DNA of 64,000 nt from Deltaproteobacteria bacterium (GCA_052390235.1 JBQTHB010000006.1:195579-259578), one strand, 5' to 3'; positions 408-3,896 are shown, counted from the stretch's first letter. Translations and numbers: made by a program. The notes: generated by a model not told the origin, from the letters alone.

Positions 408-2366
408 TTAATCCTCCGGCACGGCGATTTCATATACGACAAACCCCTGGCTAATCCCCTTTGCCGTGATACTGCCCGCGCACCTCGCAGATACGAAATC
501 CTTCACGCGCTCAAACACAGGCTCGCTTACTAAAATCCCCTCCACTGGGGCGACGCTCTCTAGCCTCTGAGCCAAATTCACATTCGCCCCAATGACCGTA
601 TAATCCATGCGCTTGAGCGACCCCATGTTGCCCACAACGACGTCGCCCGTATTAATTCCGACGCGGATTTTTATCGCAAGCCTCCCCTCGGCTTCCCACC
701 TGCGCCTAAGCCGGCGCGTTTTTTGCTGCATTTCAATGGCGGCTCTGACGGCGCGAAGGGCGTGGTCTGGCTGATGAACCGGATCTCCGAAGAATACCAT
801 CAGTCCGTCGCCGATGAATTTGTCTATCGTCCCCTCGTGTTTGAATACGATTTTTGCCATCTCGTCGAAATATTCGTTTAGCGTAAGCCGTATCTGCTCC
901 GGCTCTTGAGTGGTTGACCACGATGTGAAGCCCGATATGTCGCTGAATAGGACGGTGAGGGATTTTCTCTCGCTCGCCATGAGTTTTTCCGGGGATTTTA
1001 AAATTTTATTCAGCACCCCAGGGGCAAAATAATTCTCGAACATACGCCTCAGATACGCCTTTTCCCGTTCCTCGGCGAGATAGCGGTAGGCGTTCACGGA
1101 AACGAGGGCGAATATAAATCCGAGCGACGGGCGGACGGCGTTTGTGAGGGTGTTCTGATGGAGAAAGAGCCAAACGACCGAGGCGGCAAAGACGACGAAG
1201 AGGAGCAGAGCGCATATTGAAAATCGCGCCGCCCGAAACCTGAGCGCGAATAACACGAGAAACACTATTAAGCCCACATCGGCAAGCGCGCTCCAAGCGG
1301 GTGAAAGCTCGCTTAGGAAATTCTCCGTCAGCACCGTGTTGGCAATATTCGCATGGACGCCGCTCAGGGGATAGGCGTTCTCAAGGGGGATGGGCCCTAT
1401 GTCCCCGGCTCCGGTGGAAACATCTGCAACAATTGCCAAATCCCCCTGCATGACCTCCCGCAGTTCGTCGAGAGCGGCGGCATCTCCCTCGGCCCCCAGG
1501 AGAGCCGAGAAGGAGTAGTGCTTGAAAGAATCGTTCCATGTACCTGCGAAGTTCAGAATCATACGCCCCCTGCCGTCAACGGGAATGGCAACATCCCTCA
1601 CCCCGCCGTCTGGGAATTTCGCTCCCCGAAGGGTAATCCTCCCGCGAGATAGCTCGATACGCTCCGGGGGAACGCCGAGATAATCGCATACCATGCGAAA
1701 TGTCAAGCTCGGCGCGTAGCCGTCTCCATATCGGATGAGAAGGGCAAACCGCCTATAGACTCCGTCTGCGTCGGGATATGCCGTGATGTGTCCGACTCCC
1801 TTGGCAAATTTCGCCAAATCTGGAAAAGTCGGATACGCCCCCTTTGCCGCCAGCATGGATTCGCCGCCGCCAAAATCGCGGGGACGCCAGAGGGTCTCGT
1901 CCATCAGCGCCTGCTCTTGAGGGGATAGCGCAGGGGGAGCAGATACGCCACCATATTCCTCAAGGGCAAGCACAACGGGGAAATAGACCGTCTTGGCGCG
2001 CTCTGTCGCCTCGATAAAATAGGAGTCGCTCTCTTGGGCAGACGGGCGCTGGAACAAAATGTCGTAGGTTATGGTTTCCGCTCCGCCCTTGGAGAGGATG
2101 TCCGTAATACGCCCGTAGAGGGTTCTATCCCAGGGGAATCCCCTGAGTTCCTGAAGGCTTGAGTCGTTGAGGTCAACGTGGGCTATGTGGGGGTAAATCT
2201 CCTGCCTGCCGAATAATTTATAGCGGAGTTGAAAGAGCTGGTCGTTAGTCTGAAGATTCCACACGCTAAAAACGCTTGGCAGAAGGAGAAATAGGAGCGA
2301 CGCAATGAGAAAAGAGCCGGCGACAAGAGCGGCGATGCGGATTTTATAAGCCCTATTTGTGTTCAA
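408..2366 (-). CDS. Membrane-bound class III adenylate/guanylate cyclase with periplasmic CHASE2 sensor domain
   Basis: 652 aa. The layout is N-terminal TM, a ~300 aa extracytoplasmic region, a cluster of TM helices (LIVFLVLFALRF...LLLFVVFAASVVWLFL), then a C-terminal cyclase catalytic domain with the FSDISGFTSWS...FIGDGLMVFFG signature. Its start overlaps the upstream gene by 14 nt. Confidence 0.85.
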   Translation of the reverse strand: MNTNRAYKIRIAALVAGSFLIASLLFLLLPSVFSVWNLQTNDQLFQLRYKLFGRQEIYPHIAHVDLNDSSLQELRGFPWDRTLYGRITDILSKGGAETITYDILFQRPSAQESDSYFIEATERAKTVYFPVVLALEEYGGVSAPPALSPQEQALMDETLWRPRDFGGGESMLAAKGAYPTFPDLAKFAKGVGHITAYPDADGVYRRFALLIRYGDGYAPSLTFRMVCDYLGVPPERIELSRGRITLRGAKFPDGGVRDVAIPVDGRGRMILNFAGTWNDSFKHYSFSALLGAEGDAAALDELREVMQGDLAIVADVSTGAGDIGPIPLENAYPLSGVHANIANTVLTENFLSELSPAWSALADVGLIVFLVLFALRFRAARFSICALLLFVVFAASVVWLFLHQNTLTNAVRPSLGFIFALVSVNAYRYLAEEREKAYLRRMFENYFAPGVLNKILKSPEKLMASERKSLTVLFSDISGFTSWSTTQEPEQIRLTLNEYFDEMAKIVFKHEGTIDKFIGDGLMVFFGDPVHQPDHALRAVRAAIEMQQKTRRLRRRWEAEGRLAIKIRVGINTGDVVVGNMGSLKRMDYTVIGANVNLAQRLESVAPVEGILVSEPVFERVKDFVSARCAGSITAKGISQGFVVYEIAVPED

Positions 2367-3069
2367 TCCTGATAGTCTTACTGAAGAAATTCACTGCCTC
2401 AACCACTGTCGCAAGCGTTTCAATATCGGTCTCGCGAGGGTATGTCGGAATATAGACGTAGCCGTATGAGCCGGCGACCTCTATCGGTTTTTCAGGCTCG
2501 GCGGCAAATTTGCTATTGCGCCGCTTGAGGTCTCTAATCTCGGCAATCAAATCCGCCGAGGCGCGCTCTTTGGCCGATTTAGCGGCGGCGAGGTATTTCT
2601 CGGTCAGCGTCTCAAGACGGCGGAGTCTCTGGGCGGAGGCGAGGAGATAAATTACGGATTTCCCCCCCTTTTGTTGCTTTGGCAATAACCAATCTCCGCC
2701 AGCGGGGATGTAGTATTTCCCTCCGCCGTTGGCGCGGCTTTGATTGAAATCCTCAATTGAAGCGGGAAAAAGTAGCCTCACGTCGTTTTCAGGCTCAGCG
2801 AGATAGGCATAGACGTAGGCGTTTTTAACCGGGCTGATATAGATTTTCAGCACATCGCCCGGATAGAGCGAGTAGTCTTCGGTTATTTGAATTATTTCAC
2901 TGCCGCCCAGAGAGTCCAAACACGCCGCAACAGTCCACCTGAAGCTGAGAGTTGATTCATCATCTGCGGCGGATTGAGAGTCCTCGGCGCGCCCCCCCAC
3001 TCCTAAGGAAACCACCGCAGTCAGCAATAACGCAAGCGGCAATCTCAATTTAGCCCATAGGTTCTGCAT
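2353..3069 (-). CDS. Secreted hypothetical protein, paralog 1 of a tandem pair (possibly DUF4384-like); translationally coupled to the CHASE2 cyclase
   Basis: 238 aa with a signal peptide (LALLLTAVVSLGVGG). It has a beta-rich N-domain carrying a YVYAYL motif. The C-terminal helical tail (RLRRLETLTEKYLAA...ADLIAEIRDLKRRNSKFAAEP...KTIRIEHK) is nearly identical to that of the upstream paralog. Confidence 0.6.
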   Translation of the reverse strand: MQNLWAKLRLPLALLLTAVVSLGVGGRAEDSQSAADDESTLSFRWTVAACLDSLGGSEIIQITEDYSLYPGDVLKIYISPVKNAYVYAYLAEPENDVRLLFPASIEDFNQSRANGGGKYYIPAGGDWLLPKQQKGGKSVIYLLASAQRLRRLETLTEKYLAAAKSAKERASADLIAEIRDLKRRNSKFAAEPEKPIEVAGSYGYVYIPTYPRETDIETLATVVEAVNFFSKTIRIEHK

Positions 3070-3096
3070 CTAGCCAGCCCCCTTTTTTTCAGGCAC

Positions 3097-3765
3097 TTAT
3101 TTGTGTTCTATTCTGATGGTTTTAGAGTAGAAACCCTTAGCGCTCGTCCGAGTGGCGAGTTTCTCAATATCCGCATCCCCGCGGAAACTCCCCGCAATTT
3201 GAACGGGCTTCTGAGGTTCAGCGGCAAATTTACTGTTCCGGCGCTTGAGGTCTCTAATCTCGGCAATCAAATCCGCCGCGGCGCTCTCTTTGGCTGTTTT
3301 AGTTGCGGCGAGGTATTTCTCGGTCAGCGTCTCAAGACGGCGGAGTCTCAGGGCGGAGGCGAGAATATGGAAAGTCTCTTCGCCTGTATTTTGGTCTAAG
3401 GCGAGCCACTCCCCCCCGCTGGGGACGTAGTATTTCTCCCCAAAGGCGTAGCGCTTATCAAAATCACTGAGGGAGCGGGGGAAAAGGAGATGCACGTGCC
3501 GCAGTGAGTCAATCAGATAGATATAGACATAAGAGTTGTCAATGGGATTAACAAAAATTTTGAATAAGTCGCCGGATTTAAGAGACGTATCCCCCACGAT
3601 GGGCAATATCTCATCGCCTTTGGACTCGATTCGCGCCGCTATCGCCCACCGGAAGCTGAGTTCCAAATCCTCAGCCGAAGCTCCCCGCATATCGGTCAGA
3701 GCAAACAGAGAGCCGATAAAGAGGGATGAGCTAAGTAGAAAAATATAGAGTCGCGCTCTCATCAT
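3097..3765 (-). CDS. Secreted hypothetical protein, paralog 2 of the tandem pair
   Basis: The maximal ORF is 3097..3813. The probable start is the MMRAR methionine at 3765, which is preceded by AGGGA and followed by a signal peptide (LYIFLLSSSLFIGSLFA). The C-terminal ~70 aa match paralog 1, with ~92% nt identity between 3217-3363 and 2497-2643. Confidence 0.6.
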   Translation of the reverse strand: MMRARLYIFLLSSSLFIGSLFALTDMRGASAEDLELSFRWAIAARIESKGDEILPIVGDTSLKSGDLFKIFVNPIDNSYVYIYLIDSLRHVHLLFPRSLSDFDKRYAFGEKYYVPSGGEWLALDQNTGEETFHILASALRLRRLETLTEKYLAATKTAKESAAADLIAEIRDLKRRNSKFAAEPQKPVQIAGSFRGDADIEKLATRTSAKGFYSKTIRIEHK

Positions 3766-3896
3766 GGGGCTTGTCCCTATTTTTAAACCGCCGCGCAGGC
3801 AATGAGGTTTCATTTCTCGCCCCCCTATCCCCCGCTAAACGCAAAAAAACCGCGCAGAGGGCATAAGCCGCCCCGCCCTAGATTATTTTCGGGAAC

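Follow-up and report, generated by a model that had tools for sequence, protein, structure and literature searches.

The CHASE2 domain, defined in 2003, is found widely as an extracytoplasmic sensor in bacterial cyclases, kinases, and diguanylate cyclases. Its ligand is stated to be still unknown (PMC5192318), and exported proteins of the FecR type are encoded beside CHASE2 histidine kinases and cyclases (PMC5192318, PMC5498481), with examples (often LysM-FecR proteins) in the Burkholderia 'BiofilmReg' operon, a related operon of P. aeruginosa PAO1, SMc02177 of S. meliloti, and plasmids of Ruegeria and Paracoccus. Here, we analysed a stretch of 64,000 nucleotides (nt) from a metagenome-assembled genome labelled Deltaproteobacteria bacterium (GCA_052390235.1, JBQTHB010000006.1:195579-259578; hereafter the window), in which positions 408-3813 carry three head-to-tail open reading frames (ORFs) on the minus strand that encode, in order of transcription, two paralogous small DUF4384 proteins (paralog 2, then paralog 1) and a CHASE2 class III cyclase. 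This kind of small protein, which we call the partner, is specific to one orthologous subfamily of CHASE2 cyclases, a subfamily not seen without it, and we consider it likely that these putative adenylate cyclases have the DUF4384 protein as an obligate regulatory subunit (co-sensor) in the periplasm, possibly switched by proteolysis.

The arrangement resembles that of the FecR systems, in which an exported non-enzymatic protein is likewise encoded immediately upstream, on the same strand, of a sensor with a transmembrane (TM)-CHASE2-3TM layout, and in which the pairing is kept across genera. As with FecR-type partners, the function of the DUF4384 partner is putative, and the role proposed here is read from sequences. 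The two families are unrelated, however: a relationship to FecR was considered and rejected (no FecR (PF04773) hit at E ≤ 1; hhalign probability of 0.2%). Moreover, the outputs of the FecR systems are histidine kinases or cyclases of ≤34% identity, and for FecR operons neither a start-in-stop overlap with codon-level conservation nor an associated caspase-like protease has been reported, in contrast to the loci described below.

Other systems share parts of the logic. The S. meliloti CHASE2 cyclases CyaD1, CyaD2, and CyaK, the only CHASE2 cyclases known to have been studied, need the envelope protein NsrA and a protein signal, plant uL2 (PMC13001267). Like them, the window cyclase is a receptor-type CHASE2 class III enzyme, but NsrA is a predicted outer-membrane beta-barrel whereas the DUF4384 protein is soluble, and the three S. 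meliloti cyclases are only 22-26% identical to the window CHASE2 region, with no DUF4384 partner on their replicon. In the ExoR-ExoS/ChvI and CpxP-CpxA systems, periplasmic regulators bind the periplasmic domain of the sensor and are removed by proteolysis; similarly, a small exported protein would here dock on the sensor and a periplasmic protease would turn an envelope event into a change of output. Those systems differ in their folds (Sel1 repeats in ExoR, the helical CpxP fold), in having histidine kinases as outputs and proteases that are not of clan CD, and in that the partner genes are not known to be translationally coupled to the sensor. In LuxP-LuxQ, TorT-TorS, and ChvE-VirA, too, a separately encoded periplasmic protein gives input to a membrane sensor, as is proposed here. 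An earlier note on this DNA, made from the sequence alone, had drawn this analogy with periplasmic binding proteins; it holds at the level of logic but fails for the fold, as the partner has a predicted Ig-like beta-sandwich and helical hairpin, with neither a periplasmic-binding-protein fold nor a Pfam SBP match.

Finally, Peptidase_C14, DUF4384, and CHASE2 are joined pairwise within one polypeptide in cyanobacterial orthocaspase-DUF4384 (PMC7475262) and metacaspase-CHASE2 (PMC3501461) fusions, whereas here they occur as neighbouring genes. The published Trichodesmium fusion has a caspase domain predicted to be cytoplasmic and no cyclase, whereas the present loci have a separate exported protease and partner, with a cyclase as output. 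The DUF4384-CHASE2 cyclase pairing, its start-in-stop overlap, and the triad with a protease were not found in the searchable literature, the coverage of which is incomplete; no paper held both 'CHASE2' and 'CHAT domain', and the DUF4384 literature checked for both terms (DUF4384 and CHASE2) described no such gene pair. Accessory-protein-dependent extracytoplasmic sensing is already known, and the pairing with a DUF4384 partner is apparently new.

A DUF4384 partner accompanies one CHASE2 cyclase subfamily

The operon comprises the following elements:
408 to 2366, minus strand: cyclase, 652 amino acids (aa), TTG start, CHASE2 receptor-type class III (IIIb-like) putative adenylate cyclase
2353 to 3069, minus strand: paralog 1, 238 aa, the proximal copy and a divergent family member, the last codons of which hold the cyclase start
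3070 to 3096, minus strand: inter-paralog spacer, 27 nt, in which a purine-rich Shine-Dalgarno-like AAGGGGG precedes the ATG of paralog 1
3097 to 3813, minus strand: paralog 2, the distal copy and a canonical family member, longest ORF 238 aa, likely start at 3765 (222 aa)

These ORF coordinates agree with the 14-nt overlap (2353-2366) and the 27-nt gap between the paralogs that the earlier note reported. Its description of both small proteins as 238 aa long stands for paralog 1; for paralog 2, 238 aa is the length of the longest ORF and 222 aa is likelier, as the public record is of 222 aa and begins at the latter of two neighbouring Met codons (3765, the 17th codon), which is probably the true start.

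We collected 52 related loci, and an orthologous CHASE2 cyclase gene directly follows the partner gene in all of them, a link beyond chance; one, a 1.1-kb contig (L048), shows the beginning of an overlapping ORF only. The sets considered below are 38 genome loci, seven contigs reached via other homologues, six loci reached via the cyclase, and L048. The genome-locus search used a 12-sequence alignment and a pattern representing the C-terminal motif of the partner; because this pattern could favour overlapping junctions, the loci from other homologues and from the cyclase were added. In all 38 genome loci, which span Ignavibacteriota, Bacteroidota, Acidobacteriota, Spirochaetota, Dadabacteria, Desulfobulbales, and Proteobacteria (at least seven phyla), a full-length orthologue of the window cyclase (35-49% identity) lies directly downstream of the partner gene on the same strand. 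The same arrangement was found on all seven contigs whose partner homologues had been chosen regardless of the C-terminal motif: in six, the downstream gene is complete and carries precomputed Pfam CHASE2 and Guanylate_cyc annotations, and the seventh contig (L045) ends within this gene but is otherwise identical to L044. The closest relative of the window proteins (P0003) is encoded on L048, where only the start of an overlapping downstream ORF is visible, without identification.

The reverse route started from the cyclase, with a metagenome scan and the best 80 of 590 confirmed relatives. Among these 80, the partner is present upstream of all cyclases that have ≥39% identity and upstream DNA (6/6) and of none with ≤34% identity. 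Genes upstream of 33 distant CHASE2 cyclases included FecR eight times, FHA five times, and DUF4384 not once. Likewise, the partner was found nowhere on the replicons of 22 plasmid- or chromid-borne CHASE2 genes from alpha- and beta-proteobacteria, and in the two cases that were inspected, a FecR-domain gene immediately precedes the CHASE2 gene. Each CHASE2 subfamily may thus have an accessory protein of its own. The association with a CHASE2 sensor that the earlier note had drawn from a single locus thus recurs in all three sets of loci, with L048 contributing an overlapping ORF only.

As a side observation, distant CHASE2 cyclases (L056-L128; also L046:2810-3751 and L047:1910-3877) often have a FecR or FHA gene directly upstream.

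The cyclase starts within the end of the partner gene

The junction between paralog 1 and the cyclase is organised as follows:
2353 to 2366, minus strand: 14-nt overlap, with the cyclase TTG (2366-2364) out of frame in the ATT GAA (Ile-Glu) codons of paralog 1 and the TAG stop of paralog 1 at 2355-2353

Paralog 1 ends in ...R-I-E-H-K-stop, and no canonical start other than the TTG formed by its ATT GAA codons precedes the first membrane helix of the cyclase. Elsewhere, an out-of-frame TTG was present in 37 of 42 distinct junctions, within I/L-(D/E) codons of the C-terminal motif, giving overlaps of 14 or 11 nt, and two further junctions have an overlapping ATG. The Ile codon that forms the TTG is ATT in 35 of the 37 junctions, whereas a control Ile two residues upstream (n = 30) is encoded by ATC (13), ATA (9), and ATT (8). 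Paralog 2, which has no cyclase behind it, has ATA GAA where paralog 1 has ATT GAA, and so forms no TTG. In addition, cyclases read from the overlap TTG align from residue 1 across phyla. Because the junction is conserved, ATT is strongly preferred, and the cyclase N-termini align, we take the TTG to be the real start and the overlap to be under selection. The conserved overlap and the codon bias are good evidence for the translational coupling of partner and cyclase that the earlier note had put forward, and such coupling would usually go with a fixed subunit ratio.

In an alternative explanation, the partner would serve the biogenesis or stability of the CHASE2 cyclase (as a periplasmic chaperone, an assembly or an anchoring subunit) and have no signalling role. 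Strict one-to-one synteny and translational coupling are what would be expected of a stoichiometric structural subunit, and no ligand-binding fold was recognised in the partner; nonetheless, we regard this explanation as unlikely on three grounds. CHASE2 cyclases and kinases without the partner exist, with other exported neighbours (FecR), so that CHASE2 folding as such does not depend on it. DUF4384 also recurs as an extracytoplasmic module of signalling proteins, namely caspases and Ser/Thr kinases (PMC7475262, bioRxiv 10.1101/2025.01.12.632604), and the protease with interaction domains that is often co-encoded (see below) points to regulation.

The partners form a distinct family of predicted exported proteins

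Both paralogs exceed the gathering score of Pfam DUF4384 (PF14326; 27 bits), paralog 1 with 36.8 bits (residues 69-147) and paralog 2 with 41.5 bits (residues 78-154), so that the DUF4384-like nature guessed in the earlier note proved correct. DUF4384 is the sole Pfam family above cut-off in both, homologues in the family carry precomputed PF14326 annotations, and no NCBIfam or PADLOC model matched the partner family. An exhaustive HMMER search returned 1017 cluster representatives at E ≤ 1e-3. At the stricter limit of E ≤ 1e-10 there were 378, nearly all of which have 200-250 aa and align over their full length; a second homologue search found 413 more, with names no better than 'DUF4384 domain-containing' or 'hypothetical', and a word-indexed homologue search with paralog 1 as query returned only itself and its paralog. 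Conserved features of the family are an F-x-W just past the signal peptide and the DUF4384 core (GD..K, YVY, LLFP, YYIP, W.xLD...G.ETFYLLAS), followed beyond the core by two helices, a linker with AE(R/K)P..I.G..R(G/S), and a C-terminal ...F(Y/F)S(K/R)T.TI(D/E)H, the C-terminus forming a beta-hairpin that ends in ...TI(D/E)H(K/Q). Both window paralogs have full-length collinear similarity to the family, including F-x-W, linker, and C-terminal motif. As judged by this similarity, the small proteins represent a distinct and widespread family of about 230 aa that is predicted to be exported.

Each paralog begins with basic residues followed by a hydrophobic segment, as identified by a hydropathy heuristic (not SignalP), and in neither does a Cys, as expected of a lipoprotein, follow this segment. 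By the same kind of heuristic, 130 of 144 family members have an N-terminal hydrophobic segment and 2 of 144 a lipobox-like motif. The export of both proteins asserted in the earlier note is therefore consistent with signal-peptide-like N-termini throughout the family, and the proteins appear to be neither lipoproteins nor members of a family with an established function. AlphaFold2 models of both paralogs, with a mean predicted local distance difference test (pLDDT) score of 81.1 for paralog 1 and 81.9 for paralog 2, show a beta-sandwich and a helical hairpin, from which a linker of low confidence leads to a C-terminal beta-hairpin modelled with confidence (in paralog 1, residues 40-145, 150-184, 197-207 (disordered), and 221-237, respectively). 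A Foldseek search against the PDB gave no match at E ≤ 0.001 and only weak Ig-like ones (filamin, RhoGDI). One partner gene, in a Dadabacteria metagenome-assembled genome (L033:2070-2743), is split over two frames, with two tblastn segments and an ORF that ends early at ...GTLRG; a frameshift, a pseudogene, and an assembly error are the alternatives here.

The cyclase is a CyaB-like class III enzyme with a CHASE2 receptor domain

Two domains were assigned within the cyclase:
1251 to 2300, minus strand: CHASE2 domain, residues 23-372, predicted periplasmic
456 to 971, minus strand: catalytic domain, residues 466-637, with Guanylate_cyc and PDB matches

The protein scored 138.4 bits against Pfam CHASE2 (PF05226; cut-off 26.3) and 95 bits against Guanylate_cyc (cut-off 21.9), which confirms the identity given to it in the earlier note. 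CHASE2 is flanked by a hydrophobic helix (about residues 9-31) and a hydrophobic block (about residues 375-445), both read from translation and alignment, and is predicted to lie in the periplasm between them. The CHASE2 part had no match among PDB sequences. The closest solved relative of the catalytic domain is P. aeruginosa CyaB (3r5g; E = 9e-46), and all 17 orthologues compared have the metal-binding Asp476 and Asp520 and the transition-state Asn597 and Arg601. The substrate-specifying residues of the window cyclase are the Lys in IDKF and the Thr in DYTVIG. In class III cyclases, this Lys/Thr pair marks class IIIb adenylate cyclases, which use ATP. We infer that the window cyclase is a CyaB-like class IIIb enzyme with cyclic AMP (cAMP) as its product.

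Some related loci deviate from this pattern or extend it. In the cyclases at L035:968-3328 and L039:6686-9022, Glu replaces the Lys (DEL/NEI, not DKF) and the two share a C-terminal extension of about 130 residues; their product or nucleotide specificity may differ. At L041, two proteins with cNMP_binding domains, one with AP_endonuc_2 and one with a protein kinase domain, are encoded directly 3' of the cyclase (L041:9094-11658 and L041:11713-12696) and are possible effectors of the cyclic nucleotide.

Most loci also encode a caspase-like protease

A gene for an exported caspase-like protease (C14 or CHAT) is present in about 42 of the 52 loci. Peptidase_C14 genes occur in 37 of the 52 loci; of 38 such genes, 36 precede the pair in the same orientation, in most cases no more than 100 nt away. 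The C14 proteins are probably active, exported proteases, since the His motif (37/38), the Cys motif (38/38), and an N-terminal hydrophobic segment (37/38) are kept. They take the form of WD40 fusions of about 800 aa (Ignavibacteriota, Bacteroidota), TPR fusions of 504 aa, and short proteins of 345 aa (Spirochaetota), and in 5-6 further loci a large TPR-CHAT protein is encoded beside the pair. Example protease genes are:
L012:3591-5972
L042:4468-5982, a TPR-C14 gene followed by partner and cyclase
L037:8215-11589

Between the TPR-CHAT gene and the partner-cyclase pair of L039 lie genes for small TPR proteins and for a Peptidase_C39 protein (L039:2858-3454). The protease is absent from about 20% of loci, and its type (C14 or CHAT) and position vary. 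No caspase or CHAT gene was found in the 64-kb window (best tblastn E 0.1), and L033, L036, and L051 are likewise protease-less within the available DNA, most other remaining loci being short contigs; the protease of protease-less loci may be encoded elsewhere.

A candidate target of these proteases lies in the linker of the partner:
3181 to 3183, minus strand: codon of the conserved linker Arg, Arg211 of paralog 2, within G-x-[VIT]-R-[GS], a candidate protease site

The G-x-[VIT]-R-[GS] motif is present in nearly all 52 loci and its Arg in 93% of the family, with R211 in paralog 2 and Gly203 at this position in paralog 1. In the AlphaFold2 model, Arg211 falls in a segment of low-to-moderate pLDDT between the helices and the C-terminal hairpin. 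Orthocaspases cleave after basic residues (PMC6426788), and the conserved Arg, situated in a flexible linker, may be the cleavage site.

These observations could also be read in another way, with the partner chiefly a substrate, inhibitor, or adaptor of the caspase-like protease, and the cyclase merely co-expressed or sensing a released peptide, without a standing complex with CHASE2. The position of the protease genes directly upstream in most loci, the DUF4384-orthocaspase fusions known elsewhere (PMC7475262), and the conservation of the linker Arg would all fit. Yet the tightest link of the partner is with the cyclase, to which it is always adjacent and with which it overlaps even in protease-less loci such as the window, while the protease is missing in roughly one locus in five and changeable in type and place. 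This reading therefore seems improbable to us beside that of the partner as a regulatory subunit of the cyclase.

The two window paralogs have diverged and exchanged sequence

The two-partner arrangement was found in the window only: none of the 52 other loci has a tandem partner duplication, and no further copy of the partner family or of the cyclase was found elsewhere in the window. The ORF that precedes the partner gene encodes a flavin reductase-like protein in L051 and a protein containing a PAS domain in L049. Paralogs 1 and 2 share 52% amino-acid identity (E = 4e-76). Scored with a family hidden Markov model (HMM) built without the window copies, paralog 2 reached 240.6 bits and keeps 27 of 28 highly conserved positions, and paralog 1 reached 209.2 bits and keeps 24 of 28; the four replacements are D->K131, E->S138, F->I140, and R->G203, and its linker carries an 8-residue insertion.

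One part of the two genes departs from this divergence:
2486 to 2648, minus strand: conversion tract, paralog 1 copy, codons ~142-192, helical hairpin
3206 to 3368, minus strand: conversion tract, paralog 2 copy, 163-nt direct repeat

Identity between the two genes is 89% over the 163-nt direct repeat and about 56% over the rest, and identical residues share the same codon at 38 of 45 positions in the tract, as opposed to 30 of 66 in the flanking parts (Fisher p = 3e-5). The family as a whole shows no special conservation of the tract region, the middle of which varies most. This pattern is the signature of gene conversion as read from the two gene copies; if the conversion is under selection, the helical hairpin would be where both copies have to stay fitted to one and the same cyclase.

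Genomic surroundings of the operon

Directly upstream of the operon lies rpmE, with dnaK, rpoH, and proS also in the neighbourhood, and the boundary is marked by a hairpin:
3844 to 3878, minus strand: probable terminator 3' of rpmE, a GC-rich hairpin followed by U7, from RNA folding

The fold comprises a hairpin and a U-run; the z-score of the whole 87 nt is not significant, and a consensus terminator scan did not list the hairpin. It would probably insulate the operon from the ribosomal protein gene. About 390 nt 3' of the cyclase (17-407) contain no ORF of ≥60 aa, and no Rfam match at E ≤ 0.1 was obtained for the operon region and this downstream stretch. Because of the rpmE hairpin upstream and the ORF-free stretch of about 390 nt downstream, we consider the three genes a self-contained unit among housekeeping genes. 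Within the downstream stretch, a strong sigma-70-like promoter match (11/12; 83 to 54, minus strand) precedes a gene that begins near position 17 and continues past the edge of the window.

This setting among rpmE, dnaK, rpoH, and proS, with no effector gene adjoining the operon, also speaks against the module being an anti-phage or conflict system (a Pycsar-like cyclase plus caspase) rather than an envelope sensor, which we consider very unlikely. The cyclase domain does match PADLOC PycC models (best E = 8.5e-32), and the C14 proteins of other loci match the PADLOC 'caspase' model and, below cut-off, the NCBIfam 'caspase, EACC1-associated type' model. However, the PycC matches are generic and domain-level, CyaB is a much closer relative (E = 9e-46), the Lys/Thr pair indicates ATP as substrate, sensor, partner, and protease are all predicted to be extracytoplasmic, and PADLOC has no match for the partner. 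The Pycsar identity was rejected because the HMMs match a generic cyclase domain only and because the cyclase is a CHASE2 membrane receptor with no effector gene beside it, where a Pycsar system has a cytoplasmic cyclase next to an effector gene.

Proposed mechanism and points against it

With the partner as a periplasmic regulatory subunit, signalling could proceed as follows. One mRNA would yield both partner and cyclase, and ribosomes ending the partner would re-initiate at the embedded TTG of the cyclase. The exported partner would bind the periplasmic CHASE2 domain and, when bound, would determine how active the class IIIb cyclase domain in the cytoplasm is, and thereby the output of cAMP. 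In most lineages, the co-encoded exported caspase-like protease, with its WD40 or TPR modules, would probably give the input by cutting the partner, most plausibly after the conserved linker Arg. The window has a duplicated partner and no protease gene in the operon, and the homogenisation of the hairpins by conversion would fit the docking of both copies on the same cyclase. The sequences show the domain identities, the synteny in both directions, the overlap with its codon-level selection, the predicted fold, the frequent presence of a protease gene, and the conversion tract. That the partner binds CHASE2, in which direction it regulates, that proteolysis switches it, and that cAMP is made are presumed steps of this scheme.

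Mirror-tree comparisons lend the scheme weak support. Partner distances correlated better with those of the CHASE2 domain, at r = 0.82 (partial 0.73), than with those of the catalytic domain, at r = 0.69 (partial 0.50), values that are inflated by shared phylogeny and come without a valid p-value; the divergence rates were 0.57 for the partner, 0.58 for CHASE2, and 0.42 for the catalytic domain.

Several points weigh against the proposed role. Physical binding of the partner to CHASE2 is presumed on the indirect grounds of synteny and this inflated correlation, and the export assignment comes from the hydropathy heuristic. The partner fold is uninformative on ligand or mechanism, because Foldseek gave no informative relative. 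Since the window, L033, L036, and L051 lack a protease gene, proteolysis would not be a universal input. In addition, the copy adjoining the cyclase (paralog 1) is the one that has lost conserved residues, unlike what the simplest model would predict.

A broader scheme seems possible to us, with more doubt than confidence. In an envelope cascade, an exported caspase-like protease (C14/CHAT, with WD40/TPR recognition modules) might cut the DUF4384 adaptor at the conserved Arg, CHASE2 would read the state of the adaptor, and cAMP would be made accordingly. On this view, CHASE2 domains would read partner proteins, of the DUF4384 or FecR type, and would not be direct small-molecule receptors. The window would represent a protease-independent derivative in which a cleavable and a non-cleavable adaptor compete or pair on one cyclase. 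If true, a CHASE2 domain that reads partner proteins would account for the lack of any ligand found for CHASE2 so far.

Implications for CHASE2 and DUF4384 proteins

Overall, one large subfamily of CHASE2 cyclases, distributed over at least seven phyla, was not seen without a dedicated exported partner, while other CHASE2 proteins tend to be accompanied by FecR. The pairing is a concrete and testable lead on how CHASE2 receives its signal and makes this question experimentally approachable. It also provides a first functional context for a DUF4384 family, and it links exported bacterial caspase homologues, the substrates of which are largely unknown, to second-messenger signalling.

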